Shown here piece by piece: positions 5,861 to 56,289 of a DNA stretch of 64,000 nt. Below the pieces are notes generated by a model. That model was not told the origin of the DNA, did no database searches, and saw nothing but the letters and a program-made list of their open reading frames with translations. The DNA comes from Lophium mytilinum (taxonomy: Eukaryota). Location of the stretch: assembly GCA_010093605.1 (NCBI GenBank), contig MU004190.1, positions 930,001 through 994,000 of the forward strand, read 5' to 3'. Position 1 is the stretch's first letter, and each line of letters starts with the position of its first letter. Both the position numbers and the translations under genes were made by a program.

Positions 5861-7908
5861 TTAGTTACCCGGGGAAGGGCGTTGGCCTTCCGGGAGACGT
5901 TTGAGGGCTGCCTCGACGTCCTTGTTGTCGACGACGACGCCGCTTTCAGAACACCTGGCCTTGGCGCGGAGTTCTGAGCATAGGTTGTCGATGTCGATTG
6001 TGCCGTCTCTGAAATCGGGCCTCTTGGCGAGTTTATCCCTGTTGTGATAGTGAGCAATGTGTTTAATGAAAGAACGGACAAATAATGAATGCTTACCATA
6101 TTTTGTGACAGTTGAGCAGTTGCGCTGGATCTTCCCCGGGAACAACTTCATCATCAATGCCGTCTTGTATACGCTCAATCTCCTCTAGAGGATTCGACTT
6201 CTGGACAGCAGGCGTGTTGTTGTCGCCAAAGTTGAACGGGCTTCCGAAATCAGCCAATGGGAATGCGTCATTGAAGAAGCCGCCGGTAAAGTCGCCATCG
6301 CCTACGATAGCGGCCTGCGACTCGCGATAGTCACCAAACAAAGTCGGGTCGAACTGCCCGCCGTTCTGGTTGGCGAAGAAGTCAATGCCGTTCAAGTCGG
6401 TTGCAGGCGATTTATTTGCAGCTGCAGCAGCTGGGGTGGCGTTAGATTGAGACATCGCACGAGGAATTGGATTGCGAGAATTGCCGCAGGCCATATTCAG
6501 CTTATCACAGAAGGTGACCTCACCTTCAGGATTTCCAGAACCACATCCTCCTTCATTGATAGTGTCGAGGCCGTTGCTCGGCGAGTTGTGACTTGGCTCC
6601 GGAGATGTGTCGCATGAGGATCCCATGCCGTATTGAGAGACGGACGAAGCCGACGGGGAGTCCGACGTAGACGATCCACTGTTGAATTGGAAGACCCGCG
6701 ACTGGGCTGAGCTGTCAGTGCTGCGACGGCTGCTATGGCTGGTGGCATTGTTGTTATTGTTGTAATCGAAGACGGAACTCGAGTTGATTCCGTTCACCAT
6801 GGGACTGAAAAGTCCGTTGATATTGCTGCTGCTCGAAGCATTGCTATTAGGAAGGCCGTTAGGACTCCCTTTCGAGTTGTTCGTTGGCGAATTGGAGGAG
6901 ATTCCATTGAGCTGACTCTTGGGACTTAGGCTGGCGCCGTTGCTATTCGTGCGAACAGGCGAAGCAGTATTTACGGTCGGCTTGTTGCCTTTCGCGAGAG
7001 CGCCGTTGTCAAGAAGATGGGCGCCGGGAAGACCACCGAATCTTGGGAACTCGAATTGGAAGTTGTTGGCAGGGGTGCCGTTTCCAGTGTTAAGTGATGC
7101 AAATCCACTTGTGACCGCAGGAGCGCGACCTAAACCAGAGCTGTTGAGAGACAGACGCTTGCGATACTCACGCAGCTCGGTTTGCAGTCTCTGAACTTGA
7201 GCGCGAAGCATGCCGTTCTCATGATTTGCAGCATCGGATGCCTGCTCCAGTTCGCCGACCTTGGTCTCGAGGTCTTTCAAATGCTTCTCTTTTCGCTCTC
7301 TGAACGCCCTTTGGGCTGCGCGGTTCTGTGCCTTGCGCTTCTGATACAATATTAGTATATTTATGTGCGTTGATTGAATATGTCGCGGGACTTACAGTTG
7401 TAGGCTCGGATGTCAATGGCTTCCTACCAGGCTTCTTTGCCGTCTTATCTTCACCTTCCCGTCGCTTCCCTCCGCCTTCTTGATCTTCCCCATCGTCATC
7501 GGGGCTCTTTCGCTTATCTGTGCTCTCGTTATCTCCCTCGTTCGAATGACTCGACGAGTCACCTGGCAGACCGCCAATCATCAAATCGCTGTTATCGCCG
7601 TTATCATAATCGAAGCTGTTGTCGCCATCAAGGTAGTCGACAAATGGGCTGTCGTCGAGGTTATCGAAGTTGAGATTGGCACCAAAGGTGTCGGGAGTGC
7701 CCTGCTGAGGGGACGCGAAGAAGGTCGGGTCGATGCTATCGATGCTAGAGTATTGCAGGCCAGCATTGGCCGCACTCTGCTTGTTGGCACCGTTTGAGTA
7801 CATGTTGTTGTTCTTGCCGTTCTGGTTTGAGGCCAGGGCGGCTAGTAGAAGGTCTTGTTGGTTCGGATTGAGGTAGTATTGATTGTTCTTGGTCGATGTG
7901 CCAGCCAT
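5861..7908 (-). CDS. YAP1: AP-1-like oxidative-stress bZIP transcription factor (Yap1/Pap1/NapA orthologue)
   Basis: Exons 7908..7396, 7340..6097, 6038..5861 with canonical introns. bZIP KRKAQNRAAQRAFRERKEKHLKDLE; n-CRD FCDKLNMACG; c-CRD CHKIWDKL...IDIDNLCSELRAKARCSE. Confidence 0.95.
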
Positions 7909-9437: not shown

Positions 9438-10478
9438 ATGGCGCGCACGCTGGATGTCGTTCAGCAAGATGTCATGCACCAGGAGAAGTCGGCTGCGGAA
9501 CTGCGCGTCATGGTAAGTGCACCGCAATTATCGCCAACCGCGAACAGCCCAGAAGATTGTTCCTAACCTATTATGCTAACCTTTCCGAAACAGATGAAGC
9601 AACTGCGAGACTCTGTCAAAGAAGATCCCAACAACATAGATCCTGGTCTCCAAGACCTCATCGATACGACACAGGCACATTTGAACGAAGATGAAGCAAA
9701 GCTTGCTGACTTGATCAAAGAGTTAGCTGTGCTACAAGCGAAGAGCCAGGAGGCTGCCGAGCCCGAGAAGTGGTCCAGAGAAAAGCATCCAGTTCTTGGC
9801 AAAAAGGCCCAAACCCCGGATACCACAACTGGCGAGGCGCAAATTACCAACCAGTTCAAGGTTAACGACATGGTATTGGCCCGCTGGATCCACGGAGATC
9901 GCGGATTCTACAAGGCTAAGATCACCATGGTTATGGGCTCTGTATCGGCTCCGAAGTTCCGCGTCAAATTTCCCGACTTCAATAATGACACGGACGAAGG
10001 CTTAGAGCTAGGAGACCTCAAAGCGTTGGACCCCTCGAAAAAGAGAAAGGCTGAAGAGACCACAGCACCGGCGGCAGCCCCTGTCAAACCATCCATCGCT
10101 ACCACCGTCATCTCGGCCCCAGCCAGTATCAACATGAATCTCGTCACCCAGGCCCGACAGGAGCCCAGCATGGTCAGCGATGGCCCTACCAAGCCCCCCA
10201 AGATCCGTCGCAAGGCTACTGGAACCAAAGCACTCGAGAGCCACAAGAGCAACTGGCAGGCCTTCCAGGCCAAGGGATCTAAGAAGGTCAAGAAGGAGAG
10301 CATGTTCAGGACTCCCGATCTTCCCAACGCTAGGGGTAAACGCCCCTATCTCACTCAGAACTTATTGCTAATCTTAGACTTAGTCGGTGTTACTGGCTCT
10401 GGTCGCCCTATGGCCAAAGATCCTACCCGTGTCCGACACACCTACACCATCGAGAACGAAGACGACGACGATTATTGA
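9438..10478 (+). CDS. SPF30: SPF30/SMNDC1-like Tudor-domain splicing factor
   Basis: ATG at 9438; introns 9513..9593 and 10336..10383. N-terminal DPNN coiled coil, Tudor FKVNDMVLARWIHGDRGFYKAKIT, and C-terminal KSNWQAF...SMFRTPD...RVGVTGSG. Confidence 0.8.
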
Positions 10479-11280: not shown

Positions 11281-13922
11281 TTATATGGAATCTAAGTCTG
11301 AATCGGACCCTTCAGGGGATTGCGTCCAGGTAGGAGCTTCGGGCCGAGTGGCTTGCAGGTTTGTTGATGCACCGGATGTCGTCGTCACATCCTTGGTTTT
11401 TCCACCCATCTTCCCCTCGCTCCTCGAATGAATCGCCGCTTTAGTCTTCTTCCGATCCTTTTTCGGTGCGGCATCCTCATCACTGGATGTCTTCAGCGCC
11501 TCGTCGAGCGAGTCCAGCGACTTCAGCGAATCCAGCGAGTCCAGTGAATCCAATGAGTCTAGCGAATCGTCGCTCTCCATTCCCGATACCCTCTTCTTAG
11601 CGCTCACTCTACCTTTGCCCTGCCCCTGCCTCTGCCCACCGCTTCTCATATCGTCACTCAACGAGTCTCCGTCCAACGAATCCAATGAATCAACATCGCT
11701 AGCCACTGTCTTCACCACGCTGGTCTTGCGTTCTCTCTCCCGTCGCTTCGCTTTCTTCTTCCGCCCCTCTTCATCACTACTCTCTAGCATTTCCTCCAGC
11801 TTCTCGTCGTCCCACTCGCTGCTATCACTCAGCGTGACGTCGGCGCTTGTGTCGCGATCGGGTAGGCGGGTCGGCCGCAATATTCTAGGTTTTCGCAGAG
11901 AGGCGAGCACGCCTTTGCGGCCGCTAGGCTTCCCCTTCTGACCGAGCTCTATGAACGGGGATACGCGGACGATTGTCATACTTTCTGGCGGCGTTACGTC
12001 GAGCTCCTGGAAGCGGGTCCGTCGCGCCGTAATTAATATCTTAACTAAACTCCAATTAGGAGACCTCCGGAAAGGGGCGGGTCAGGACTTAACATACCAA
12101 CGCGGTTCTCAATCTGCGTCAGCGCATGCAGGCCCTGCAACAACTCATTCAGCTCATTCGCCTCCGTGGAGTCATCGAACGCAGTGTCGATATTATCGAT
12201 CACCACATACACGAATCCGAAGTTGGTCGCGCGGATGCTGCTGAGCAGGACCTGCCACACGCCCTTGAAGTCCGCTTGCGTGGTCAGCAAGCCGGTTACG
12301 AGCGCGCACTGGGCGTCGAAGGTGAAGTAGTCGGGCCGCTGGTGCGCGAGCTGCTCGATGAAGCGCCAGGTCCAGGCGACAGGGCGGCTGGGACTGCTTC
12401 CGCTGCCACTCTCACTGCTGCTGTTCATGGGGGAAGCGGCTGCTTGGGCTTGGTCGCTGGACACGAGCGTTAAAATGACGTTCCCGGCCTCGCGCGCGGC
12501 TTTGGCGACGTCGAGAGAGAGCTGGGTGGTCCAGTCTGGGCGGGCGAGGAAGCCGTCGATGTAGAGGAAAGAAGAGGTCCGCGATTCGACCCACGCGTTT
12601 ATTTGTGGGTTCTCAAGGAGGCCGAGACGTTCGTAGGTGCGGCTTGTGCTGCCTGTTGTTTCGGCGGCGAGGGAGAGGCGGGCGAGTTCGACGTTGGGGG
12701 TTGCTTCTAGAGCCGCTGGAGCAAGGGTTGAAGGACGGATAAGGAGGAGGACTACAGGGAGAGCGCGAGTGCTCAGGAGGGTCTTAGACGCTTCGAAGGG
12801 GTCGATCTCTTCGCGTTTACGTGCTTCTTCTGCTTGTTGGCGCTGCCAGTCGAACTGCTCTTGAGCTGCTTCCATCATAGCGTTTAGCCCCAGGCTGAGC
12901 CCTTTCACAGTTTGGTTTGCTTCGTCGATTTTCCAGTTGCCCATGGCTATCAGGGCGCGGGTTTGCTTGGTGACGGTGGTGTTTTCGGCGATGGCGATGC
13001 CTTGGCCTAATGATGCTACTTCCTTTACTTTGATGACGTGGCCGTTGATGGCTTGCCAAAGTGGCTCGAAGCGGATTTTGTAAGGCAGGGCTATGTTTTT
13101 GAAGAACTTCTCTATTTGCAGTATTAGTTTCTCTGAAGGAAGCGAATCTCGAAGTTGTAGGTCTAACTTATTGAGTTCTCCTGGTAGTATTTGACTGCTT
13201 CCGCGAGGAAATTTGTGAAAGCTTCGTACGCCCCACACACGTGCTTCGCCATAGCTTCCGATGGGTACAGTCCTAAAAAGCATCTCACCACTTCGAACTG
13301 ATCGCCGATATCCGCCAACTTCTGCAGCACTGTCTCTTTAAGCTCTACGGAGTTGATGTTCATGATCAGCAAGAAGCGGATGCTTCCCCACGCCAAAGTT
13401 GCATACTCCGGCGCAGCTTGAGACAGCACGTCCACGATCGGGGCGTAGAAGTAGATGGTAGAGCAAAACTTGTCGAGTCCACTCTTTACTTTCCGCACGA
13501 TCTTGTTGGAGCTTGCGGCCTCTTTTGCCCGTCTATCTCGCGCAGCGAAGGCGGCGTTACGGACGTCAACAAAACATGCTGAGCGCTCTTGGATTTGGGC
13601 AAGCTTTTCGGTGCTGGCTAAGCTGTTGTAAGTGTGAACGGCTGATTTGAGTGCTTGGTAGGATTGTTGAGTTCCATGACTATTACCTTGTTAGTATTTT
13701 CCAAGAAAAAGATGTGAAGTGTGATATGAAGAAAACTCCAAACCTTTTCCAGATCTCTACAGCCCATTGCTTTCCTTGACTCGGAGCTGGGCTCGGGATC
13801 AATGCTCCATCTCCCTCTGCTAGTGGGAGTCGTCTTTGTAGTTGATCTAGAGTGGGTTTGGCGCCTATAGTGGAAGCCCGCTTGGGGGGTTTGATGATGC
13901 TTAGGCCTTCAGAGAGCTCCAT
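11281..13922 (-). CDS. NACHT/STAND-like protein: DUF7708-type N-terminal domain, degenerate NACHT core lacking Walker A, and a low-complexity S/D/K tail
   Basis: Four ORFs join in frame through introns 13680..13743, 13112..13167 and 12045..12097. Motifs FCSTIYFYAPIVDVLSQAAPEYATLAWGSIRFLL, NAWVESRTSSFLYIDG, VYVVIDNID and VKILITAR. Confidence 0.7.
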
Positions 13923-14551
13923 GGCCAGGACAACTTCTTTGGAACGATAGCTTGTTCTAGTTTAGGAAATATAGATCTGGTTTACTCGAGAAGTTCGCCA
14001 TTCGTTTCGTCGTTTCCATGGAGTTCTAGGAGCTGACACTGCTGTCTGCACCACACAGCACCTAGGCAACTTCGGGCATCAAATCCGGTCCTCTCCCTGA
14101 TTGGACAAACTTGGCCCCCAGCCCTAACGCGTGTCCAAGTTCTTGTACCATTCAAACCCCAGCAACGTGCAGCGAGTCGATAAGAGAGACACCGGAAATA
14201 GTCAGCTATGCTTGAAAGCGTCTCAGCCGCTCACACAGGTGCGGGTGGCCGTTCATCACGCCAATCGCGGGCCGTCCATGTGGGGTTCAGCGCCTCTTTC
14301 TCTCGAAAGCTGGCGACAGTGGAGTTCTGCGCGCCCTCTCCGCGCTTGCACAAGCATTCTCGTAACACGAAGAGTAAAGCTTAGGCAAGCATTGTGCTCC
14401 AGGGGCTGACTGCAGCAAAACTTTCGGCTTTTGCGAACGTGCTTCGAAAGAAGTACAACTAAGCATTGACTCCCTAACCACCAGGCAGAAGGCTCGCGGC
14501 AACTAGCTTAATAAACCCCTGCCGCCGCTGCAATCTTCTCCGGTATTTATC

Positions 14552-17236
14552 ATGGCTGCAACAGCCCCACCCATTCAGCCTCAACCTCTCCATCAACCTG
14601 GCCTCTTGCAGGATTCGAAGAAGCCTTCGATTGCGCGGTACGATACGTTCTCTTCAACCGCAACTACCGCAGTCCTTGAAACGGAAAATGAGAGTTGTGG
14701 CGAGTTGACTGGAAGTGAAGTAACTGCCCCGAGCCTTACCAGCATGGAGTCGACAGAGAAGCCAGCCGTCAATGGCAACGACCCGACGGCTCTCAAGGAG
14801 CTCGTGAGAGAGATTCTAAAGCAGGAACGACTAGAGATTCAAGCCCAGGACCGCGACTCTAGACGACCTGAAGGCCTTGATGGTCTCACATCGCGATTCC
14901 TAGCGTCTTACATCACAGAGCTTGAAAAGAAAGTGGCCGCGCTCGAGAAGGATAAGAAAGAGGAACCCAAGGAAGACAGTAAGAAAGATGAGTCCAAGAC
15001 CGAAAAGAAAGAGGAGGAAGACAACAAGGACGAGAATGGACGACCTAAGCTTGTAGTCAAAAGGCTTCGCAAAGAGACTACAGCCGCCGCAGCAGTCGCT
15101 GACGATGACGAAAATGGAAAAGGAAAGAATGCGGCGGACCAGAAGCATATCTTGACTGTGACTCGCAACATCGAGAAAAACAACCAGAAGACTCTCGAGA
15201 TCAGGTCTAGGCTAGTCATCCAGTTCCTTCGCAAGGCTGTCAAATACTACCCCGGGCAAGCCCTCGGAGGGAGTATGGTATCTTTTATGGACCCGTTCAT
15301 GCTACTTTTCCATTACAGAAAAAGCATTCTTGAGGAGCTAGCCACTCTCGAGCTGGAGTCAGAGACCAAAACGCATCTCGAGCATGTTTTGGACTTTATG
15401 AGGACAGAGTGTCCGGAAGTCTCACAGGAGCTGGACGCCTTGGAGGAGGACGAAGATCGGAAAGTCATCTCTTTCGCCAACTCTTGGCTTATCTTCCGCC
15501 CTGGAACTATTGTGTTCTCGACGCAAGAGTCTGAAGATAAAGACGAGGGTGAGAAGGCTAAAGTAGTCGTTTCATCTCCCGAAGGCGAAAAGCGTGCATA
15601 TATGGTCGAAGAGCTGGCAGGTTGCGAGGTTGAAAAACTGCCAAGTGGCCGCGAAATACGAACTTCTCTGAAGCTCCGATGCTGGTCCATTGATTTCGAT
15701 GGTTACCGATTTGGTCGGACATACACAGAGCTTTATGTTCGACCTTTCAATGGTGCCCGTGAGATTGCGGAGCTGGAGGTCGTGCCGGAAAAGTATCATG
15801 ATCCGATCAGGGACAAGCTGATTGAGAGAGGCCATTCATTTTGGAATCTGAAAGATAAATCTAAGATATTCCGGTTGTACACTGGGAGGGCTTGGTCTAA
15901 GACGTCTTTAGCGGTAAGAATACTACACACCATCTTTTCGTGCGCTATTAGCAATACTGAGCTATGCTTTAGGACACTCTCCGAGTAGTAGTGGACCACG
16001 CAGCGTATTCAAAGACCGGCAGTGAAGGTATCAGAATCGAAGGGGTGAGTGACACAACGCAGGAACAGCACTGTCCTTGTAGCGATTGCAAAGAGAAACG
16101 TGAGACCGCTCGACAGAACTTTGAGCGTCTGGATAGAGTGTCGCCATACGCAAAGTACAACTCGATTGAGCCAGATATTGAACCGGACGACGAGATGCTG
16201 CTCCTCTGTCCTGATCGTGCCTACGCATTTTCCCTCCGCGATAAAACCTGGATGCCGGTCAAACTTCGTGATCTGAAGACCGTGGAGTTCAGGAAGAAGG
16301 CGTTTGACAAACTAGTCATGAAGGCTGATTACAAGCGGACTGTCCAAGCCCTCGTCTCCACATACACATCTGATGAGCGCAAATTCCGCGACATCATAGA
16401 AGGCAAGGGTCGCGGGCTCGTGCTGCTTCTCCACGGCCCACCTGGTACCGGTAAAACCCTGACAGCGGGTAAGAAAGCTACTTGATCCTCCCTTAGCAAA
16501 TTTTTATTGTGACTTTACTTACCAACCCCAGAATGCGTCGCCGATGAATACCAACGCCCCCTCTACATGGTCACCTGCGGCGATCTAGGCACCGAGCCCT
16601 GGCAGCTCGAAATGAACCTACGCCGCATCTTCAAAGACGCCACAACCTGGAACGCCGTCCTCCTTCTCGACGAAGCCGACATCTTCCTCCAAATGCGCGA
16701 CTATAAAGACGTCAACCGCAACGCTCTCGTCTCTGTCTTCCTACGAGAACTCGAGTACTTCGACGGGATCTTATTCCTAACCACTAATCGAGTTGGCGCG
16801 ATCGACGAGGCCTTCCAGTCTCGGATCCACGTTACGTTAGGCCTGCCAATGCTAGACGAGGACTCGAGGAGGGACATATGGAAGATATTCATCAAGGATC
16901 TGAATGGCATCCATAGGGATTCGCGGAAAGATTTGCTGAAGCATGTGAACGCAAAGCTTGGGAAGTGTAATTTGAATGGGAGGCAGATTCGGAATTGTGT
17001 GAGGACGGCAATTGCGTTGGCGGACCAGGCGCAGGAGCCGATTAGCGCGAGGCATCTAGATGATGTGGTGAAGATGGGCGAGGAGTTTGCGGAGTATATG
17101 AAGACGTTGCATAAGATGGATGCTGGTGAGTTGAGCCAAGCCGGTTGATGAATGATGGGAGTGAAGCTAACTTTGACTAGATGAGATCCAGGCGTCTGTG
17201 GGGAATCGGCTGGCCAGTTGGAAACCCAGGGATTAG
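14552..17236 (+). CDS. Fungal AAA+ ATPase with DUF7025-type N-terminal region
   Basis: Introns 15914..15972, 16469..16531, 17126..17180; stop TAG at 17234..17236. Walker A LLHGPPGTGKTLTAE, Walker B VLLLDEAD, RNALVSVFLRELEYFDGILFLTTNR, IDEAFQSRIH, LNGRQIRN. Confidence 0.9.
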
Positions 17237-17943
17237 AAGGGGGGAGAACTCCTAAGTAACAATATTTGGCTTTAGTACAACCTTTCAACTATGTTGATGG
17301 TATCGGCATCTTTTCTTTTGAAGCTAATAAACAGTCTAATGTCGAAGGCATCGCTACACGAGAGCACCTCGATATATGTATGCTGCTTAAATCTGGAGAA
17401 CAAGGGCGTAGACTCGAATCGAAGTGAAGGGCGAAAGAATGTATTGGGGTACTTCAGACAGTGCCCGACACCTGTAAACATCCTTTTAAAGTCTCGATGT
17501 AAGTCCAGGTCGATTTGAGGTTGTTCTGTCTCCAGATCACATGGCGGTGGCTCTTGGCAGAGCATTATTCCAGCTTACTCAGCAGATGTAAAGTTAACCT
17601 CTCTATAACTTTTCGAATCATTCCAATCTCATACTTTCTTCACACTGGTGTAAACTGTGCACCACTGCGCACCACTGCGTGAGGCCCTCTGACACAGTAT
17701 TGAATATTGTCGTAGCGTTGGGAAGCCTTATAGCTTTCCGGGGCACGCTAGACAGTGTTCCAAGGACCAAGGTTGAGGCGAGAGCGCTCTGATGCCACGT
17801 GATCCAACGCTCATACAACACGGTCGCACCGCCCACATGTACAGCTCAGAACTCACTTACGAAAGTCACAGCCTGCCCAACCTCTTCTCACTACTTACGA
17901 ACAATAAACCACCAATACTCGCAAAACGCCTTACTCTTTCGAA

Positions 17944-18894
17944 ATGGACTGGCTCAGTGTACTGGAAGAAATGGCCGTCGAGGCCGACCTAGACGATATG
18001 GCCCTCGAAGAAGGCACCCAAGCTGAACTTGCTACCTCCTATGAACCAGTAAAACTCGAGAATCCTCAATTTCTACGCGAAGATGCCCTCAAGCACATCC
18101 ACGACATCAAAAAAGGCGCCAATTCTTGCCAGAAGCGCCCCCAAATGGTCACCTCACGGTCCCGAAAGCGGGAGCCCACGAGCGGCAACGTCTACTACTT
18201 GGTGAAGTTGGAACCACCATTCAGCACTGCCGAAGAACTTGCCGTAGCCGCAAACCTTAGCCCAAACAATACACCCAGCGTGGAAAAAGCGACCGGAGAC
18301 GAAGGCACAGCTCGTTTCTGTCGCCTAAGCACCCATTCAAAAGAAATTCTCACCGACTGGTTGGCTCTCAAGCACCCCTCATACCGGCCAACTTTCATCA
18401 GAATCGGGAAGGCGTCTAAAGAGCTGTCTAGCACGTCCATCTACCCTACTCTAGGTGTCGATACCACACTTCCTCAACATCGACCCAATGCCTGGCACAC
18501 CTCGTGTCCATATCCTTTGCAGGATCAGTATCCCGTTTGGTACTTTTTCTACGGCACGCTTGCGAACGAAAATCTCCTATCCAACCTGTTCGGATGGAGT
18601 GACGATATCACTGACAAGATGCCTATCTTACACCGCGCTTCTGTCAGAGGTGGTGTCTTAAAGACGTGGGGTGGACGCTATCGGGCGATGGTTGACTCAC
18701 CTGGAGCCGTGGTGGAGGGTTTCGCATATCAGGTTCAGTCTAGGGACGAAGAAGATGCTTTACTACTATATGAGACGGAGAAGTATGAGGTGGTGCGGTG
18801 TGAGATCACGCTCGATGGTGCTAAGACGGTGATTATGAGAAGGGTGAAGGGGTGCACGTTTCGCTTTGCTGGATGTGAAGAAGAGCTGGATTGA
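17944..18894 (+). CDS. Gamma-glutamylcyclotransferase (AIG2/GGCT)-like protein
   Basis: Intronless 316-aa ORF with YFFYGTL, WGGRYRAMVD and LLYETEKYEVVRC motifs. Confidence 0.75.
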   Translation: MDWLSVLEEMAVEADLDDMALEEGTQAELATSYEPVKLENPQFLREDALKHIHDIKKGANSCQKRPQMVTSRSRKREPTSGNVYYLVKLEPPFSTAEELAVAANLSPNNTPSVEKATGDEGTARFCRLSTHSKEILTDWLALKHPSYRPTFIRIGKASKELSSTSIYPTLGVDTTLPQHRPNAWHTSCPYPLQDQYPVWYFFYGTLANENLLSNLFGWSDDITDKMPILHRASVRGGVLKTWGGRYRAMVDSPGAVVEGFAYQVQSRDEEDALLLYETEKYEVVRCEITLDGAKTVIMRRVKGCTFRFAGCEEELD

Positions 18895-21853: not shown

Positions 21854-24800
21854 ATGGCTGGTACGCGAGGTCGGCCGCGCAAAGCAGCCGACTCAACGAA
21901 GAATGGTAGTAATGCTCGTACCAGGAGCTCCAGAAAGACGACTAAGAAGGATGCCGATATTCCAGAGGTGTTTCAGGATATGCTCTCAGAGGCAGCGCCC
22001 TCTGCTAGTGCCGGCCCGGATGAGGACAGTAAGCCACTGAAGAAACGCAAGACGACAAGGAGCACTCGTATTGCCGGACCAGAACCACCACTACCTCCTA
22101 TCACTGCGGACAGTCAAACTACCCTTCAGCGAGATCCTTCCCCGCACACCCAAGATGATTCGGCGGACGAAAGATACACAGGGAACGGGCTGCTACAAAC
22201 AGTTACGGATTACTCAGAAGAATCAGAGGAGAGCGATCTTGAATGGGAAGACGTTGGTATAGATCAAGCTGAGGAAGGAGATCAGAAGTCGGACGAAGAA
22301 CGTCCCATAGGAGACGTTTCTATCATCCTGGGTGGCGACAAAAATGTTCAAAAAGCAAGGAAGCAAGTGCGGCGGAAAGGGGTGACTGCTGCAGAGAAAA
22401 AACTAAGGCTTGATATCCATAAGATGCACATTTTGTGTCTGCTCTACCACGTTCATCTGAGGAATGCATGGTGCAACGATTTGAAGACACAGGTATTTGC
22501 GCCGTTTTATGTATCTGAGCGTGATCCTAATAGTGATTCAGGCTACCTTGAGGAAGTTGCTCAATGTTAAGCTAGTTGAAAAACTCACCCAAGACCCAGA
22601 AAAGAATCAAGGGCAATCATCGGCGTGGTTCCTGGACGGGTTAATTAGACTCAAAGATTTATGGTCACAGAGATTCTCCGTCACAGCTATGGGACTTCAT
22701 AAGCCACAGTGGGCTGATAGTACGGGGGGCGTCCTAGACGTAAGTTTTTGAAGAAAATTCAACAAGAACGCACTGGTCCTGACTGTTCTCATATGTGAAG
22801 CTCAACCAATTCGATGAGCTCGACCCCCCTATGGAATGCTCAGACTTTCGCACCGCGGCGCACACACTTCGAGGTTCTCAGGATCTCGGTGCTCAACTAC
22901 TATGTGCGCTTCTTCGAGGAATCGGCGTAGAAGCCAGATTGGTTTGTTCTTTACAGTGCCTGCCATTCTCCTCGGCTGCTCAAAGCTCTACTCCCCAGTC
23001 AACCTCCAAGATGAACCGCATTGTCTTGGATCCATACAATTCAGACGTATCTCCAAGCAAGCCCACTGTCTCGGCCGCGTCTGCATCAAACGCTCCATCT
23101 ACTCCATTGCCGAGGCGTCCCGTGCGATTGTCTAGGCTTGGACAGTTCTTGACTGGTCGAAAGACGTACGATACCGGCAAAGCTCCTCTATCGCCAAAAC
23201 CCAAGAAGGCCTATCGTACCGCATACCCTGTATATTGGGTTGAAGCGTTCGATTTCGCGATGCAAAAATGGATTGTGGTAGACCCACACTCCTCCTCGAC
23301 AGCCAACAGACCAGATAAAATGGAACCTCCCATGAATTACTCACAGAACACGCTAAGTTACGTGGTGGCGTTCGAAGAAGATCTGTCAGCGAGAGACGTT
23401 ACACGGAGATATGCTAAAGCGCTGAACGCGAAGACTCGCAAGACCAGAGTCGAGAGCACTGAAGGAGGTGCGAAATGGTGGAAGAAAGCCTTGAAAATCT
23501 TCAGAAGAAGGACGACTCTGGACAGAGATCAGGTCGAAGACGCGCAACTTGCGCGTAGAGAAGGCGCAGAAGGGATCCCGCGAAACGTTCAAGACTTCAA
23601 AGGTCATCCTGTCTACGTACTTGAGAGACACCTCAAGCATAACGAGATTATCCAACCTAAAAATCAGGTGGGCAAAATCAACGTAGGAAGCGCAACTGCC
23701 AGTAAAATGGAGCCTATCTACCGTCGACGCGACGTGCATGTCGTTAGAAGCGGAGACAAATGGTATCGTATGGGACGAGAAGTGAAGGAGGGCGAGCAGC
23801 CCTTGAAACACGCCAAACCCCGAAAGGGAGCTCGAAACTCTCTTGGTCCTGATGAGCTCGACACGGAAGACATGGAGGATGTCGGTGTCGGACTGTACGC
23901 GGCAATTCAAACAGAGTCATACGTTCCCCCACCTATTGTCCGCGGCAGAGTACCTCGGAACGCGTTTGGAAACCTCGACATCTACGTTCCGTCGATGGTC
24001 CCAATGGGCGGTGTACATATTCGCGCACGCGAAGCTGCGAAGGCCGCTCGAATCGTCGGGGTCGACTTCGCCGATGCTGTGACAGGCTTTCAGTTCCGAG
24101 GCCGGCATGGTACTGCAGTTATTCAAGGTATCATCGTTGCCGCCGAGCATGGAGAGGCAATTGAAGCTGTCTTGAAAGGAATGCTGCAGGCACAAGAGGA
24201 TGCACGGAATGCTTTACGCAGTGCAGAAGCGTTGCGGCTGTGGAGACGATTCTTCTTGGGTCTTCGGATCGCCCAAAGAGTCGCGGGATACGAAATCGAA
24301 GGGGAGAAGGCAGATCTTCGGGAAGAATTAGACCACGAGGAAGAGCAACTTGAAGAGCAGCAAATGGCTGGTGGCTTCTTCCCTGGGGTTGATATGGGAA
24401 GCATTGATCCAACGGAGGATAGGGATGAATATGACCATGAGCACTTTGGGTTCGATGGGGCTTCTAGTGGTGGATTCATTGCAGATTCAGAGCATGATTT
24501 CGTCCTAGAAAGAGCCAATAGCTTCGGAAGCTCGCTCCTAGAACAGGTCCCAATAACACTACGAAGAGCCTGGACAATACCTCAGCACCAAAATTTGCCC
24601 AAAATGAACCCAGACGATGATGGAGGTGGCTATGTGTCGGAAAATCCGGGTGATCAAGGGGGAGGGTTCATCCCAGACGAAGAAGCTGTTTCCGAGGAGA
24701 GTCGGGACGTTCCTCCTCAACGGCCGAGTGATCCAATGGAAATGGACACAGCAGGTGGATTCGTTGTTGACGATGCATCCAAGGAGCATGAATACAATGC

Positions 24801-25140
24801 AGTCGAGCAAGTGGAGCACGCCCAGCTCCCCGTATCTACAGAAACGATGGACAACATAATGCTAGAAACGCCACAGGCCCATCAACTAGTGGCGCCTCCA
24901 AGCGTGTCCATGATCGCAGAGTCTAAGTCGACAAGCCAACACCCTATTCAAGACATGAGCTCGGTTCAGCGAGAAGAGCAAGCGGCAAATATTTCGCAAG
25001 GGTCAGAACACGCACTGCCCGAACACGCACAGCCCACGGACACCTATGAGCAATCGAGCGATGAAGACCGGGACTCATTGCCATCTGAAGACCCAGAGGA
25101 TGAAGATGCAGATCCGGATTGGTTAGTGTATACAACGTAG
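21854..25140 (+). CDS. RAD4: DNA repair protein Rad4/XPC
   Basis: Introns 22493..22541 and 22740..22800. Transglutaminase-like fold (GSQDLGAQLLCALLR, YPVYWVE, ARDVTRRY); BHD domains (DFKGHPVYVLERHLK, VPRNAFGNLD, FADAVTGFQF). Confidence 0.95.
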
Positions 25141-41534: not shown

Positions 41535-44129
41535 ATGGCAGAAGTTCGACCACAAGTGGTCTATAGCGATGTTGTCGAAGGAGCGGATCTCCAAGGGCAG
41601 CTGTTCGCTGGCAAGAAGTTCTTTATAGCACAACGCTGTCCTATGCGCTCGTCTTTCGTGGAACAAGTCAAAAGCAACGGCGGCAAGGTCGTGCCACTGG
41701 AGAAGTTCGCGGACTACATGATTGTGGATCATATGCGCAAGGATATACCAGCAGGCAGCATCTCATACACCTTTATCGAGCAATCCATCAGGAAAGGGGA
41801 GCTGGAAGACCCAGACGACCACATAGCAGGGGAGCCAGCGGGCACGGTGCGAGAGATTGGCTCATTTAGACCGACGAAGAGTGGCCGGATTCCCTTCACC
41901 GCCGAAGATGATAGACAGTTGTATAACTGGATCAAGTCATATGAACGCGATGGCGGCGCAATCATGGGCAACGTGATTTACAAGCAGTTAGAGGAAAAGG
42001 TACGGATTCCAGCTCTTCATAGCCTCATTGATTGACAATTACAGAATCCCCGCCACCCATGGCAATCATGGCGAGATCGCTACGTCAAACAATTGCAATA
42101 CAAACCACCTCCAGGCTGCGCGCCCACTAATGGTCCACTTTCACCTCCATCCGACGTTCCTCCTTCCGACGTGGACTCAGCTGCTCGCCCGCCCGTTCCC
42201 GAACAGCCGAAAAGTCGGACCGTTTCGAAAGACGCCTACAAAGCAGAACGCTTCCGGAGTGAAGTTAATGAGGCCGACAAAGCAGAACGAGTTCAAGTCA
42301 AGGTTGATGAAGCGAAAGAGCCAGAACGGCCTCGGGAAGCTAGCGCTCCAGTTTGGAGCTCGGAAGACTGGGTCGAAGTATACAGCAATGTTTCCACAAT
42401 CCAGGACACTCCGGCTAGAGATTACATAGCGGGCTGGGAGGGATGGGCCGAGGGTACCGATCACACTGCTCAAGAATGGCGAGACTTTTACGAGAAAACG
42501 GTGCTCCCGCGTTGGGAGAAGGACCAAGACGCGAAGAACACAATCAAGGTGAAGTCGGCTAAAGAACAACGTCAAAGACCACCATCTCCGAGCGTGGTAA
42601 TCACTACACCGAAGAAAAAGAACCGGATTCAGAGTTCTTCGTCTGTACAGGCACCAGGAAAGCTCCCTGTGCAAGCGTCCACTACGACGACGCAGTCTCC
42701 AGCTGCGGGCGACTCTAAACAATCCCACGACAACTTAATATACGAGTTGATGGGGCATCGAAAAGGCCGGCAACAAATGGTTGCATATCGATTCTATTTC
42801 GAAGCGCACCGACACGAACTCGAGGACTGCGATCCTACTGACTACTCAGCTCCTCATCGGATACTCAACCCGCGCTGGAAAGCGTTATCAGAACAGGAAC
42901 AAGCTCCTTACTACGACCTGGAAGCTGCCGACAAGGAACGTCATCGCCTAGAAAACAATCCAACCGAATATCGGGAATGGTGTCTCGAGTATAGGAAGTC
43001 TAGTAAATTGAACTCTAGCAAACGAGGTCGTGAAGACGCCGATGGCGACGAGAACCGAGAAGAGTTACCGGACTCGTGGAGAAGTAAGCGGCAACGCCAG
43101 CAGGAAAGCGTATCTCTTGAAGATAAGCATGAGCTTGAGACGCAGAAACAAGATCAAGGCGTTGTGGATCTGGGCGAAGACATAGAGGATCAAGTTGCAG
43201 TCGCAATAGAGCAACACCAACCTGGGGAAAGCAGTGAAGAGGAACCGTCGATGGACCAATTCGCTCAAAAGATATACGTCGATGTTTCTGACGATTCTGA
43301 GCCGGAAGAGCAAGATGAAACCCCGGAAGAAGTACAAGAAGGCAGAACTCCGAAGCATCGAATAATAGACCTTAGTGACGATGAGGATGGAACTGAAGAG
43401 GAACAAGAAGACGAGGGGCAGGAAGAAGAGGAATATGATCACAACGAGCAGACCATATTTGACAACGCTTCTGCGTCGCCATCTCCACGCCAAAGCCGCT
43501 ACAGACCGCCCGCAGTATTAGACACCCAGGCCATTCTCGCGGACCCTACACAGGTGCTTGATGTTAGCATAGCCGAGCCCCCCGACACGCAGTTCGACCA
43601 TTCCAGCGACCGGGCATCTTCTCCACTTGCGGGCCATGCTGCTTCGGACGGGACATCGCACTCGATCCAGGAGTTCCGCAGTTTAGAGGATCTTGAACGC
43701 CAACGCCATTCTACCCCTCCGTTAGACCTGGCCATGCCTCAACCTGACATGGACTCAGACGTCGAATGGGACAGCCAAGATATGCCTGACGACTCAGACC
43801 CACCTCTGGACGGTGAGGATACGATAGAGTTCTACCACGAGATGCTAGACCGCGGCTATGAAGACGAGCTCATCAGAGACGTAATGCGAGCGTGCATGAC
43901 TAGAGCCAAGCTCTCGGAAGAGGTATTGGCGGAGGTAGCCCATGGGGAACCTTGGCCTGAGAGGAGGGGCGTATGGACTGCCGAGGATGATGAGGATTTG
44001 GAGTCCACTGATGCGAGACGGGTCCGGAGAGTCATGAAAAAGCACACTGATGACCAGTGGGGAGGGTGTGAGGAGCGGCGGACGGTGCTGGATTACATTC
44101 GCCAAGTTTCCGGACAACAGCAGGATTGA
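41535..44129 (+). CDS. RAP1: Telomere protein Rap1 (TERF2IP-like): BRCT, Myb, acidic region, C-terminal RCT; contains an HMG-box-like insert
   Basis: BRCT LFAGKKFFIAQRCPMRS...NGGKVV; Myb GRIPFTAEDD...GNVIYKQLE / NPRHPWQSWRDRY across intron 42000..42044; C-terminal GVWTAEDDEDL. Confidence 0.88.
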
Positions 44130-45073
44130 GGGCGTAGAGCACATCCCTCTCATCATATAGGACTAGTCCCACGGACTATTTGTTCCAACGATGCATACGA
44201 TAATTTTAGTGCCTGAATGGGTTTCACAGGGTTATCTAGGCGTGCATAGCATGGATGGGGCGCGTGGAGTCTCTGTTCGGACTACTCACGTGATTGGATT
44301 GTCTCATTATTCAGGAATCACGATAGGTAGCAATTAGCGTTAGCATGAGGCTGCACATATTGAATTTGAATGGTATACATTCGGCACTTCAACCGAGTGC
44401 CGTGACACAACTTTATGTATACTTGAATTCTAAAAACTCCAGTTGTGAGATACCACAAACATGTTGAGCATTTGTGAAGATTGCTAGGGCACCTCAGACG
44501 ATGTCATTCGATAGTACACAGCAGCCTACTTGCTCTGGAATCCGAGTATTACATGAAGCTACCTAATCGAAACGCAGTCCATGACAAGCAAGACATGCGC
44601 AATCCACGATATCCACAAGGGGTTGACACCAAGTAAACGCAAGGGCAAATCATTGTTGTAGCGGCGAAGAAACGCCGTTGTTGGCGAGATGACTAGCGAG
44701 CCATTTGGGGCATTGCGACCAATTAAAAATGCTTGCGGGTGCGCAGCTATGATGAATGAGGGCACAGAGGATTGGAAAGATGACGCCAGCTGGACTCTTA
44801 TTGAAACAAACGATGACTAGACCCCTTCACAGACATACATCCTAGATGAATCACACCTTAGCGCTATTGGAACTACTGTGGATGCAGCAGGGAGTCATTG
44901 GGGCAGATGCAATTCTGGGGCTGAGTAGTACCATGGAGCTCAGCCACTGATGGGCTGACTCATGCCGTTGATAGCTATATTTCTACACCGCTGCGCTCAA
45001 GCTACACATTCCATCTCTAATTCTACATCTATCATTAAAAACTGTATATACTAGTCTGCAGCATCAACAAAAA

Positions 45074-46375
45074 ATGGCGCGCCGTGCTAAGTATCGACCG
45101 CGAAAAACCAATGTTTACCAAGACTCACCACTCCTCGACCTCCCAGCAGAAATCCGAATGCTCATATACGAAGCTGCTCTCGTGCGAGCCGATCCAATTG
45201 ACCTATTCCCTCGCAAATATATCGAAAAGCCAGAAGACGATCCAGGTCTTGCAAAAAGGACAGCTAAAGCAAACGAAGACATTCGCCATGCCAACCGATA
45301 CTTTTCGCGCAACCTTCCACCCCAATTCCGAGACCAAAAAGATCTTCAGTATGTCCGCAAAGAAATGGCCACCGGGCTCATGGCCACCTGCAAGCAGATC
45401 CAGTGGGAAGCGGGCCATCTTTTCTGGACTCAGAACGCATTCCGCTTTTCGAGCGACATTGAGTGGAACGGTTGCCGGCGCTTCTTTACGGCCATCGGGC
45501 CTCGAGCGTTATCATTGATTCGAAAGTTAGAACTCTTCTTGCCGCTAGAAGACGCACGCGGTCTTTGTCCTACCGAGGAGTTCGAATTCCAGGACATACG
45601 GCAAGCTAAGAACCAACCCAAGATGCACATGGGGAAAGCGTGGAAGGATTCGCATAGGACATGGAGCCAAAATCCGACTGCGACGAATGTTGAACATATT
45701 TGCCAAATGCTGGACGAGTGGAAGATGTCGCTGGAGCTGCGCCTTATCCTGCCCAGTGGATTCTCGCTTCAGCTCCATGACGATGACGACGTGCTATATT
45801 TTCCAGAGAGCTTGAAGATAGGGCCCCGGTTCTCGAGAATGACTCTGGTCGTCGAGGCCGGAGCAGGCTTAGACGGGGAGAAGCTCCCGCAGAGGCTTGT
45901 GGAAGAGCACGAGATAGACGTCGTTTGTTTGCCTGGCAGCGCATGGCGCTATAATAAGGATGTGACGGAGCCAGAGTCCAAGATTCTGGAGACAAAACGC
46001 TGGACCAACCCGCGGCCGGACTTGGAGTATCTCTCCGGTGTAGATACGCTGTTCAAAGAAGAAGACGCTATTACTGCCACCGGTCTTGGTGGAAAGGCAA
46101 CGAAAACACCGGGGAAGCGTCCCACGTCGCGAGTGCTAAGAAAGTTCGGTGGCTGCCGGTTCGTGCGTCGGATTGGATTGGATTGCCATAATTGCGGAGC
46201 GACGCTGGTCGTTACTGGAAAATTTGTCCCGCCATCACGCGGGGCCTGTACCCGTTGTGGTTCGAATACATTTTTCGAAGAAAGAGACGTTATCGAGGTG
46301 AAGAAAGTGACTAGGGCGCATCAGCAGGGCTTTACCAGCGACAATGCTCTCTACTCCCATTATCGAGCGAGTTGA
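45074..46375 (+). CDS. Hypothetical protein with an F-box-like/DUF7730-type N-terminus and a C-terminal CxxC-CxxC ribbon
   Basis: SPLLDLPAEIRMLIYEAAL, LMATCKQIQWEA...FWTQNAFRF; CHNC...CTRC. 433-aa ORF. Confidence 0.7.
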   Translation: MARRAKYRPRKTNVYQDSPLLDLPAEIRMLIYEAALVRADPIDLFPRKYIEKPEDDPGLAKRTAKANEDIRHANRYFSRNLPPQFRDQKDLQYVRKEMATGLMATCKQIQWEAGHLFWTQNAFRFSSDIEWNGCRRFFTAIGPRALSLIRKLELFLPLEDARGLCPTEEFEFQDIRQAKNQPKMHMGKAWKDSHRTWSQNPTATNVEHICQMLDEWKMSLELRLILPSGFSLQLHDDDDVLYFPESLKIGPRFSRMTLVVEAGAGLDGEKLPQRLVEEHEIDVVCLPGSAWRYNKDVTEPESKILETKRWTNPRPDLEYLSGVDTLFKEEDAITATGLGGKATKTPGKRPTSRVLRKFGGCRFVRRIGLDCHNCGATLVVTGKFVPPSRGACTRCGSNTFFEERDVIEVKKVTRAHQQGFTSDNALYSHYRAS

Positions 46376-54067: not shown

Positions 54068-54333
54068 CTTGAATTCTGACAGCTACTGCAAGTGGGGAAG
54101 CCAGATATTGTGTCCAAGGGCTGGATACAAGTCGTGGAGAGAAAGGGATTGGGGTTCTTTGAACAGTGTGATGGAGTTGAGCTCCAGGCACAAGCTCGAT
54201 GCGCGTCTCGGCGACGGCGCCAAAAACCCCGGACTTTGCTTGGCGCTTGTTTTCTTGGACCCTTGGACCTAGAGTATCATCACGGCTTCAATTCTACTGC
54301 AGTGCACGTCACTCCTATTGCGGCTGTGATCTC

Positions 54334-56289
54334 ATGATGCTCTCCTCCGCAAATCTACCCCCAAAACCCCCACCTGGCGTTGCTCCACTCCCTCCAGAAT
54401 GGACTGAGCATAAGGCGCCGACTGGTATGTCACTCTTGAAGCAGACTGAATACGTAGCTAATAGCGATCTAGGGCACTCTTACTACTTCAACAAGACCAC
54501 GAAGCAATCCACATACACGCGACCCGTCTTTCAACCTCAAGCACCCAGCCCGCCGCCACCAGTCGCAGCGTCCTCCCAAGCTCCTCAGACGCCGAGCTTT
54601 CCAGGCCCATTCGGCGGCAACTTTGGCCAGCAGGGGAACTATGGTCAGCAGGGAAACTATGGCCAGCAGGGGAACTATGGTCAGCAGGGAAACTATGGCC
54701 AGCAGGGGAACTATGGTCCCCAGGGAAACTTTGGATTCCAAGGAAGCTTTGGACCACCGGGGAACTTCGGACCGCAAGGAAACTTTGGACTGCAAGGGAA
54801 TTTCGGGCCACAAGGGAACTTTGGTCAACAAAATCAGGGTTTCCCTCGCGGACAGCACCGGGGGGGTCACCGTGGTGGTCATAACTTCGACCGCCGAGAT
54901 GCAGAGAAGCGAGCGAAAGATCGCCCGAAGCACCGAAAAGATATCCCAGGCTGCGCGCCGTGGATTCTAGTCAAGACGAAACTTGGTCGGCGCTTCGTTC
55001 ACAACACCGAAACTAACGAAAGCTTCTGGAAGTACCCAGAGGAAGTCAGGAAAGGGGTTGTGGAGTTGGACAGGATAGAGCGCGAGAAGAAGCAGCGCAA
55101 AGAACGCGGGGAACCCGAAGAAGAGGTGGAAGTAGGTGTACAAGTGGAGAAGACACAAGGCGATACAGCTCAAGATGAGACGGCGCAGGGAGCGGAACCT
55201 AGGCCTGGAGCGTCGGAAGAGCGAGCCAAGGATGATAATGGGGATTCCAGCGAGTACGAAGAAGTAGAGGTAACGGACGACGAAGACGAGGATAACCCAT
55301 CGAAGCGGCAACGGACTGAGGAGCCGGCCGAGGATCAACCCGTCGAGTTCAATGAGGATGACATAGCATACCAGCTTGCTGCAATGGGCCAAGACTACGG
55401 CCTCGATCCTGGTGAATACGGAGACGGTGAAGAAGATGGTGACTGGGAGGAAGGCGCGGACGGTCTCCCGTTGACAGAAGAAGATTCAAAAGCCCTTTTC
55501 CGAGATCTATTAGATGACTTTCACATAAGTCCATATCACACGTGGGAAAAGCTTATCGAAGATGGCCTTGTATTTGACGACGACCGCTACACAGCGCTCA
55601 CCAACATGAAAGCGCGGAAAGAATGCTGGAGCGAATGGTCCAGAGACAAGGTTCAGGAGTTGAGAAAGCTACGCGAGAATCAGGAGAAGAAGGACCCGAA
55701 GATTCCATACATAGCCTTCTTGCAAAAGAATGCGACTCCGAAACTGTTCTGGCCAGAGTTCAAGCGAAAATTCAAGAAAGAGCCTGAGATGAAGGATATC
55801 AAAGTCTCAGACAAAGACAGGGAGAAGTGGTATCGCGAGCATATTAATCGTCTCAAACTACCTCAGGCAACTCTGAAGTCGGATCTCACGGCTCTTCTGA
55901 AGGCACAGCCACTGTCTGTCCTTAATCAGTCAACGTCCATGGATGCGCTTCCTCCTACTCTACTAGGGGACGTTAGGTTCATCTCATTATCCCCGATTAC
56001 ACGAGATCCACTCTTGGAAACCTACATCAGTACCCTCCCAGCAGCCCCAGACGGGACAACAGCTTCGACAGAAAACGAGGACGAGCTTGTGAAGAAGCGC
56101 GCTGAGAGGGAACGACGGGAGAAGGCTCTCGCTGAGCGCGAGAAGAGAGTACAAGAAGAGAAGCGCAAACAGAGGCGGGACTTGGAATATGGGAAGGGCA
56201 GATTACGAGAGGAAGAGATGGAACTAGAACGTGCAATGAGAGTCAACAAAGATGGCCTCAAGGGTTATCTTGCCGAAGAACAAGACTAG
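54334..56289 (+). CDS. WW/FF-domain pre-mRNA splicing factor (TCERG1/Dre4/Urn1-like)
   Basis: WW1 LPPEWTEHKAPTG-HSYYFNKTTKQSTYTRP after intron 54425..54472; WW2-like PWILVKTKLGRRFVHN...SFW; FF-like FRDLLDDFHISPYHTWEK...DDRY. Confidence 0.85.
   Translation: MMLSSANLPPKPPPGVAPLPPEWTEHKAPTGMSLLKQTEYVANSDLGHSYYFNKTTKQSTYTRPVFQPQAPSPPPPVAASSQAPQTPSFPGPFGGNFGQQGNYGQQGNYGQQGNYGQQGNYGQQGNYGPQGNFGFQGSFGPPGNFGPQGNFGLQGNFGPQGNFGQQNQGFPRGQHRGGHRGGHNFDRRDAEKRAKDRPKHRKDIPGCAPWILVKTKLGRRFVHNTETNESFWKYPEEVRKGVVELDRIEREKKQRKERGEPEEEVEVGVQVEKTQGDTAQDETAQGAEPRPGASEERAKDDNGDSSEYEEVEVTDDEDEDNPSKRQRTEEPAEDQPVEFNEDDIAYQLAAMGQDYGLDPGEYGDGEEDGDWEEGADGLPLTEEDSKALFRDLLDDFHISPYHTWEKLIEDGLVFDDDRYTALTNMKARKECWSEWSRDKVQELRKLRENQEKKDPKIPYIAFLQKNATPKLFWPEFKRKFKKEPEMKDIKVSDKDREKWYREHINRLKLPQATLKSDLTALLKAQPLSVLNQSTSMDALPPTLLGDVRFISLSPITRDPLLETYISTLPAAPDGTTASTENEDELVKKRAERERREKALAEREKRVQEEKRKQRRDLEYGKGRLREEEMELERAMRVNKDGLKGYLAEEQD
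54616..54831 (+). repeat. Coding 18-bp tandem repeat, 12 x G[NS][YF]Gxx hexapeptide
   Basis: GNFGQQ (GNYGQQ)x4 GNYGPQ GNFGFQ GSFGPP GNFGPQ GNFGLQ GNFGPQ GNFGQQ. Confidence 0.95.

Follow-up and report, generated by a model that had tools for sequence, protein, structure and literature searches.

The locus considered here, a pair of divergent genes at positions 11,281 to 17,236 of a 64,000-nucleotide stretch of the Lophium mytilinum genome (GenBank assembly GCA_010093605.1, contig MU004190.1, positions 930,001 to 994,000 of the forward strand; this whole stretch is hereafter the window), raises the question of why a gene for a protein resembling the fungal NOD-like receptors (NLRs) and devoid of an ATP-binding loop (P-loop) should lie head-to-head with a gene for an AAA+ ATPase which, to judge from its motifs, is apparently competent. 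There are thousands of fungal NLR-like proteins, and to our knowledge a mechanism has been established for almost none of them. The answer favoured here, with confidence slightly better than even, is that the two genes form a conserved and expressed two-gene module of filamentous ascomycetes in which the ATPase supplies the nucleotide step for its P-loop-less NLR-like partner. Because the pairing recurs in distant fungi, once as a fused model, both products would be expected to work together; direct binding between them, the direction of control and a role in cell death or defence are features that we infer.

Gene models and predicted proteins

The models of both genes were made by hand from stop-to-stop reading frames joined at GT-AG sites, and were checked against contigs from public runs. 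The locus is laid out as follows:

13922 to 11281, minus strand: gene 1, about 822 residues; exons 13922-13744, 13679-13168, 13111-12098 and 12044-11281, stop codon included
12045-12097 (53 nt), 13112-13167 (56 nt) and 13680-13743 (64 nt): introns of gene 1, reading CT..AC on the plus strand
13923-14551: spacer of 629 bp separating the start codons of the pair, putatively a bidirectional promoter
14552 to 17236, plus strand: gene 2, about 835 residues; exons 14552-15913, 15973-16468, 16532-17125 and 17181-17236, stop codon included
15914-15972 (59 nt), 16469-16531 (63 nt) and 17126-17180 (55 nt), plus strand: introns of gene 2, reading GT..AG

One of the runs (X3), which is not recorded as RNA and was presumed to be such, was found to contain the spliced form: a single X3 contig, identical in sequence to the window, lacked exactly the six introns of genes 1 and 2, whereas all six were retained in a DNA run (X1). 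It follows that both genes are transcribed and spliced. The last intron (17126-17180) places the stop codon of gene 2 at 17234-17236. A preliminary description of the locus had proposed divergent genes around a 629-bp spacer, with the pair ending at 11281 and 17236, and both the gene models and the X3 splice joints match this layout; each sequence feature that it listed for the pair was likewise found, on reading the sequence, at the place given. The X3 contig extends across the spacer and on for another 2362 nt leftwards, merging at least three genes from both strands, and is therefore uninformative on a common transcript or on expression levels; in a compact genome, such merging would be accounted for by untranslated regions that overlap or by antisense transcription.

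The product of gene 1 comprises an N-terminal domain, a helical linker, a NACHT-like core and an acidic tail, located as follows (all on the minus strand except the last, for which no strand applies):

13005 to 13477: DUF7708, a Goodbye-like N-terminal domain, encoded by exon 2 and the first part of exon 3 and split by intron 13112-13167
12813 to 13088: long helical, coiled-coil-like linker from the N-terminal domain to the core (AlphaFold2 helices, exon 3 residues 8-37 and 44-99)
12022 to 12662: NACHT/NPHP3_N-derived core, exon 3 residues ~150-337 plus the KILITAR strand of exon 4, split by intron 12045-12097
12525 to 12563: degenerate Walker-A site YIDGFLARPDWTT, with the family signature W[IV]DG[FY]-x(4-7)-WTT
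12186 to 12209: Walker-B-like strand YVVIDNID, with a pattern match in 15 of 18 family sequences
11284 to 11895: acidic Ser-rich tail, probably disordered (composition of the final 193 residues: S 17%, D 15%, K 10%)
11507 to 11568: tandem repeat with a 9-nt period and 6.9 copies (Tandem Repeats Finder), which encodes the (SLD)n stretch of the tail

That the N-terminal domain is of the kind that precedes fungal NACHT domains, as first proposed from the motif FC..Y..IVDVL.Q..PEY..LAWG.IRFLL in exon 2, was confirmed by Pfam DUF7708, which matched exon 2 over profile positions 3-104 (E 4.9e-29), the end of the profile (108-142) matching that region of a homologue (P0006) which corresponds to the start of exon 3. 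The nearest Atlas clusters were Goodbye (72% of members) and a mixture of DUF7708, Goodbye and NACHT_N (scores 0.95-0.90). Homologues of gene 1 gave weak Goodbye and NACHT_N matches, that from Ramalina is named a Goodbye-domain protein in UniRef, and DUF7708 co-occurs with NPHP3_N in P0010, P0020, P0023, P0026 and P0159. Goodbye-like domains are described in portions of one survey as sharing a four-helix-bundle core with HeLo/MLKL, with an N-terminal extension and a function left open (PMC9815663), and are placed among pore-forming classes in a figure legend of another source (PMC12258605). It is only this domain class that suggests a possible role in cell death or defence. The structural matches of the linker were coiled coils only.

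The scaffold motifs W....S.FLYIDG, VVIDNID and KILITAR were all found in exons 3 and 4 in the order previously assigned to a NACHT domain, KILITAR (family consensus KILxTSR) opening exon 4, and the first motif is followed by GFLARPDWT in place of the P-loop, no GxxxxGK[ST] being present in the window copy of the protein. Pfam NPHP3_N matched the Walker-B half of its profile (75-151) on exon 3 with 19.7 bits (E 0.001; cut-off 24.8). A phmmer search with exon 3 against 1.84 billion representative sequences returned 20 matches, and 14 of these homologues pass the same cut-off over profile positions ~6-164, among them P0003 (51% identical to the window; 30.0 bits) and P0005 (35.5 bits). By transitive homology, the region encoded by exon 3 is therefore related to the NACHT-type domain of fungal NLRs.

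Alignment of 18 family sequences (A1; 18-50% identity to the window) revealed conservation of W..S..S.LLWIDG[FY]x(4-7)WTT, with G186, W193, W285 and D308 (the last in the Walker-B-like strand) invariant throughout. Of the 18, P0014 alone retained a canonical GxxxxGK[ST], its GKS lying immediately before DWTT; P0013 retains GTGPS, and both look, from these residues, like intermediates in the loss of the loop. Since the P-loop is gone in 17 of the 18 sequences, its absence is an old and retained family trait rather than decay of the window copy. The earlier suggestion of an ATP-dead member of the STAND (signal transduction ATPases with numerous domains) class fits this family-wide loss of the Walker-A lysine.

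Exon 3 modelled alone, and hence as a NACHT-like core without its last strand, yielded an alpha/beta domain preceded by a pair of long helices (AlphaFold2; predicted local distance difference test score, pLDDT, 77.5). Comparison of this model with 48,161 representative chains using VIA-align gave as best match the STAND NTPase Avs3 (8dgc_A; Z 8.6, root mean square deviation 3.6, 159 residues aligned), so that the similarity to a STAND fold anticipated in the preliminary description was found both here and in the NPHP3_N matches of the homologues. Further matches at Z 6.6-7.8 comprised origin recognition complex (ORC) and Cdc6 chains (6.8-7.8), BrxC, TnsC, MalT (7.0), ZAR1 (6.9), the TPR-STAND protein 6mfv (6.9) and NRC2 (6.6), while ORC subunits among the Foldseek candidates gave Z 6-6.8 upon realignment. 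A gene 1 profile found no match at E <= 10 among the sequences of solved structures. The fold evidence backs the profile evidence and could not stand alone.

Between KILITAR and the acidic tail lie about 30 ordered-looking residues, in which no profile match to a helical or winged-helix extension was found. No Pfam family matched exon 4 at E <= 0.1, and the C-terminal ANK, WD and TPR repeats already reported as missing were indeed not detected by Pfam, nor were HEAT repeats, the low-complexity Ser/Asp/Lys tail lying there instead. Short motifs of the tail, namely a basic stretch, RLPD[RS]D (RLPDRD in the window), acidic Ser clusters and an acidic C-terminus (..ALKTSSDED), are conserved in a further alignment (A5) and recur in homologues only ~20% identical, which end alike. 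The (SLD)n peptide repeat also occurs in the two closest homologues (P0003 and P0004), and is likely a site of length variation.

The features of gene 2, all on the plus strand, are:

15134 to 15913: folded N-domain, in which an SH3-like small barrel follows an alpha/beta part (AlphaFold2; pLDDT 86, predicted template modelling score 0.80)
15443-15802: DUF7025 barrel with a disordered acidic insert (Pfam E 2.7e-22, 79.4 bits)
16072 to 16089: C.C..C segment, read by eye in the linker before the AAA domain
16435 to 17125: AAA+ domain and lid (Pfam AAA 39.6 bits; AAA_lid_13 E 1.5e-14, 54.7 bits), split by intron 16469-16531
16435-16458: Walker A, GPPGTGKT, likewise read by eye
16660-16680: Walker B, LLLDEAD, likewise read by eye

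DUF7025, AAA and AAA_lid_13 occur in this order, each above its Pfam cut-off, and the protein also contains a sensor-1 TTN (TTNR), the arginine of the second region of homology (SRI) and a lid motif, LNGRQIRN; like both Walker motifs, these elements are near-invariant across 25 sequences (alignment A6). A profile of the ATPase matched VAT (the best, E 1.1e-13), p97/Cdc48, Rix7, NSF, Afg2 and fidgetin-like proteins, from which it follows that gene 2 encodes a classical-clade AAA+ protein; its exon 3 alone gave no match to the sequences of solved structures. Relatives of the ATPase at E <= 1e-20 numbered 3533, and a comparison of its exon 1 with longer proteins yielded two matches. The earlier statement that the partner keeps all AAA+ motifs together with a CxCxxC segment stood for Walker A, Walker B, sensor 1, the second-region arginine and the C.C..C segment, and failed for aromatic pore loop 1. 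Of the 13 rows in alignment A4 spanning the C.C..C segment, three contain it (those of the window, P0149 and P0077), and it was thereby ruled out as a family feature.

The predicted N-domain matched PWWP, NusG-KOW, chromo and Tudor barrels over model residues 112-220 (Z 5-6.2). A Foldseek search with the DUF7025 model found nothing at E <= 0.001, the best rows being small barrels such as eL21 (E 0.025). As modelled, the barrel appears to be a common arrangement that points to no specific relative.

Recurrence of the pair in other fungi

Linkage of the two families elsewhere was read from the locus tags attached to each protein, the ATPase side being represented by the best 120 of the 3533 relatives. 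Neighbouring tags on the same contig were recorded as follows, the gene 1 homologue being given before the AAA protein:

Ramalina farinacea: OHK93_006808 and OHK93_006809
Drechmeria coniospora: RJ55_04269 and RJ55_04268
Drechmeria coniospora, second assembly: DCS_03212 and DCS_03211
Colletotrichum fioriniae: CFIO01_05712 and CFIO01_05711

Neighbouring tags thus occur in three of the six named species with a gene 1 homologue, and in a fourth, Chaenotheca gracillima, a single 1130-residue model (P0020) contains DUF7708, NPHP3_N, DUF7025, AAA and AAA_lid_13 in that order, with neither the acidic tail of gene 1 nor the disordered N-terminus of the ATPase. The pair accordingly ranges over the Lecanoromycetes, two orders of Sordariomycetes and Chaenotheca.

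A metagenome scan with the protein P0012 recovered two contigs (L001 and L002) of one lineage, with five mismatches in 14,661 bases, on which DUF7025-AAA and DUF7708-NPHP3_N genes lie on opposite strands, head-to-head, across a spacer of ~480 bp or less. The recurrence of such partners, which the preliminary description had proposed as a check, was therefore observed as neighbouring tags, as a fused model and as this head-to-head copy. The flanks of L001 and L002 carry a DUF7730/2EXR gene and a protein kinase, and a comparison of 108 open reading frames from the window flanks with both contigs gave no matches, so that only the pair is common and the surroundings differ. A chance neighbourhood was rejected. 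The spacers of the window and L002 shared no 8-11 nt words beyond shuffled controls. In a further metagenome scan, with alignment A3, 244 stretches were matched and none was a relative.

In a quick tree of the ATPase domain (125 rows), the six linked rows (the window and five from four lineages) all fell within a single 69-row clade whose local support was 99, the sister clade of 48 rows, mostly from Aspergillus, Penicillium and agarics, containing no known linked case. The label "linked" denotes known pairs, the neighbours of the unlabelled rows being unknown rather than known to be unlinked. The tree fits a clade whose ancestor was already paired, and is no proof of anything further.

Surroundings of the pair in the window

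The pair had been placed between SPF30 and RAD4. The RAD4 boundary held, this gene lying at 22783-25140. The frame labelled SPF30 (9573-10478, plus strand) gave only a sub-threshold Tudor_3 match (E 1.2e-4; 22.4 bits, cut-off 25.8), so that its label is plausible rather than confirmed. The other genes noted are:

6093-7391, minus strand: PAP1/bZIP (AP-1-like) factor, an ordinary conserved gene near the pair
17908-18894, plus strand: AIG2-like gamma-glutamyl cyclotransferase (GGACT) gene directly 3' of gene 2, showing no connection with the pair and with no counterpart on L001 or L002
35368-38660, minus strand: PAN2 (UCH_1, RNase_T and PAN2_N), an ordinary conserved gene
42036-44129, plus strand: Rap1, an ordinary conserved gene
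44975-46375, plus strand: DUF7730 reading frame, 28 kb from the pair
54181-56289, plus strand: reading frame with FF and WW domains (TCERG1/Prp40-like), also scoring on the collagen triple-helix repeat

The DUF7730/2EXR reading frame of L002 (2687-4360, minus strand) adjoins the pair there, and the occurrence of DUF7730 near the pair in both places is probably a coincidence between members of an expanded family. The collagen-repeat score at 54181-56289 suggests a Gly/Pro-rich low-complexity stretch.

A proposed division of labour and its alternatives

Under the explanation favoured here, the ATPase would supply in trans the nucleotide-dependent step lost by the dead NACHT core, docking the gene 1 protein through its DUF7025 N-domain and the conserved motifs of the tail, and its cycle of assembly or conformational change, driven by ATP, would then bring together or set free the Goodbye-like domains as the output, the ATPase, presumably a single ring, serving as an ATP-dependent platform or switch. 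Such a role is favoured over that of a threading unfoldase because the aromatic pore loop is missing, an absence that also speaks against the classical unfoldase implied when the AAA+ protein was first described as a remodeller. The lack of the tail in the fused Chaenotheca model would fit its proposed docking function, a tether being needless there. A complex prediction with the gene 1 core, the start of the tail and the ATPase N-domain, run without alignments or controls, scored 0.00 against a mark of 0.34, and is neutral on binding.

A number of observations weigh against this explanation. As regards gene 1, exon 3 of the window alone scores under the NPHP3_N cut-off, the domain being split by an intron; the fold similarities (Z 6-8.6) are middling by the tool's own yardstick, and a Foldseek search with the exon 3 model returned nothing at E <= 0.001; and the kept Walker-B aspartates, the sensor-1 arginine of KILxTSR and the GKS of P0014 leave room for non-canonical nucleotide binding. 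As regards gene 2, aromatic pore loop 1 is absent, KYYG of VAT aligning to GTxP with a one-residue deletion (HMMER, family profile), so that the usual substrate-threading element is missing; the site reads GTEPW in the window, and its W is not conserved. The Chaenotheca protein is represented by one gene model, predicted in a metagenome-assembled genome, and its junction region, used as a query, retrieved nothing beyond the protein itself, so that it may be a merged annotation in which a predicted intron bridges two tandem genes. Its ATPase is, moreover, degenerate (Walker B ND, sensor-1 Asn and second-region arginine lost), with an insert of eight residues after the Walker-A lysine, where the window has an intron, all of which suggests that the fusion is inactive in both halves or that the gene model is imperfect; real fusion or not, it shows both families side by side in another fungal class. 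For Toensbergia and Stictis, no adjacent ATPase was present among the 120 matches listed of 3533, a result uninformative rather than negative. Finally, linked rows show no significant clustering in the tree of the ATPase: the label requires five changes, a value as low being reached in 49 of 500 shuffles.

A first alternative reverses the roles and dispenses with immunity, the ATPase being a housekeeping or stress enzyme (in protein or organelle quality control, for example) and gene 1 its cofactor or substrate adaptor. The nearest solved relatives of the ATPase (VAT, p97/Cdc48, Rix7 and Afg2) do use adaptors, gene 1 has no sensor repeats and its tail motifs are of an adaptor kind, and most of the 3533 DUF7025-AAA matches probably function with no partner of this kind. 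This proposal is nevertheless unlikely when set against the N-terminal domain of gene 1, of a Goodbye-like class found, in the portions of two sources consulted, at the N-termini of fungal NLRs (PMC12258605, PMC9815663), the narrow and patchy gene 1 family, whose 20 matches in 1.84 billion sequences are unlike those of a core pathway, and the missing aromatic pore loop of the ATPase. Mere co-regulation, whereby a shared bidirectional promoter would bring about expression under the same condition of proteins that never come into contact, would account for the short head-to-head spacers of two distant lineages (629 bp in the window; ~480 bp or less in L002) and for the presence of both genes on one RNA-derived contig. 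That contig, however, merges further genes and so says nothing on co-regulation, the two spacers share no words beyond chance, and the five-domain Chaenotheca model, provided that it is real, is hard to explain without physical cooperation; co-regulation alone is consequently regarded as quite improbable.

Improbable in the extreme is the notion that adjacency is an inherited gene order with no function, or that gene 1 is the decaying remnant of an NLR. The linked cases may all stem from one ancestral pair and would then not be independent draws, and the window piece falls below the NPHP3_N cut-off and has no P-loop; against this, the pair has been kept amid unrelated flanks across the Lecanoromycetes, both Sordariomycetes orders and Chaenotheca, and gene 1 has invariant residues in all 18 aligned sequences. 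A decaying pseudogene was rejected in view of the intact, spliced, expressed and conserved frame.

Comparison with established systems places the favoured two-gene module between several of them. Canonical fungal NLRs reportedly combine a Goodbye-like domain with a NACHT domain of the NPHP3_N type and with ANK, WD40 or TPR repeats, as Dyrka et al. are said to have described in 2014. Gene 1 resembles them in its Goodbye/NACHT_N/DUF7708-class domain, NPHP3_N homology, predicted STAND-like fold, Walker-B aspartates and KILxTSR motif; it differs in that Walker-A lysine, P-loop and sensor repeats are missing and a helical or winged-helix extension went undetected, in ending in an acidic disordered tail, and in its conserved AAA+ neighbour. 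In the plant head-to-head NLR pairs RGA4/RGA5 and RRS1/RPS4, two divergent genes act as one unit and one partner is independent of its P-loop. The likeness to the present pair, divergent and with one member lacking a P-loop of its own, is one of analogy and not homology: both plant partners are NLRs, whereas here the active NTPase would be a classical AAA+ protein, and the NLR-like partner carries no sensor or integrated decoy.

The fungal systems NWD2/HET-S and PLP-1/SEC-9 pair an NLR with a partner, the NLRs being complete, ATP-competent and either signalling to a separate executioner or guarding a target. The present locus is similar in that an NLR-type gene is tied to an adjoining gene, here as judged from linkage, and dissimilar in that the executioner-like domain resides on the putatively ATP-dead protein and the partner is the ATPase. 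Neighbour-based amyloid signalling of fungal NLRs is treated in portions of PMC9815663. With VAT, p97/Cdc48, Rix7, NSF and Afg2, gene 2 shares Walker A, Walker B, sensor 1 and the second region of homology, but it has one AAA domain rather than two, an SH3-like barrel rather than a double-psi barrel as N-domain, and GTxP at pore loop 1. Some ORC subunits have no working P-loop and take part in AAA+/STAND-like assemblies. Gene 1, whose model aligns to ORC at Z 6-7.8, may resemble them as an NTPase fold beside an active ATPase; it differs in that the two proteins of the present pair belong to different clades, and a mixed ring of both would be conjectural. As far as its sequence allows a classification, gene 1 is thus NLR-derived, with neither the P-loop nor the sensor repeats of an NLR, and its partner ATPase comes from a different clade.

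A more elaborate form of the favoured module, tentative and rather doubtful, would be a split NLR, a fungal machine for cell death or immunity whose NOD has ceded its nucleotide switch to a separate classical AAA+ ring, the dead NACHT remnant carrying a Goodbye-like executioner and a docking tail while the ATPase, via DUF7025, acts as both sensor and oligomerisation platform. A literature search found no publication naming DUF7025, DUF7708 or AAA_lid_13, or the accessions PF22942, PF23232 and PF24809. Nor did it find one on the pairing of a fungal NLR with an AAA+ protein, yielding only canonical NLR surveys and plant work, with the supplements of surveys (including the neighbour tables of PMC9815663) outside its scope; in this respect, the preliminary description had likewise known of no functional account of the pairing.

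What emerges is a family that gave up its own ATP-binding loop and is yet conserved, expressed and tied to one AAA+ clade, and DUF7708, DUF7025 and AAA_lid_13 are now tied to a testable hypothesis, namely that the ATPase performs the nucleotide step for an NLR-like protein. Were this true, NLR-type hubs could be built from two proteins, which would bear on the evolution of such receptors and on the control of HeLo, MLKL and Goodbye domains; and the split NLR, if real, would amount to a novel architecture for NLR-type signalling hubs and provide a first function for three widespread fungal domains of unknown function.

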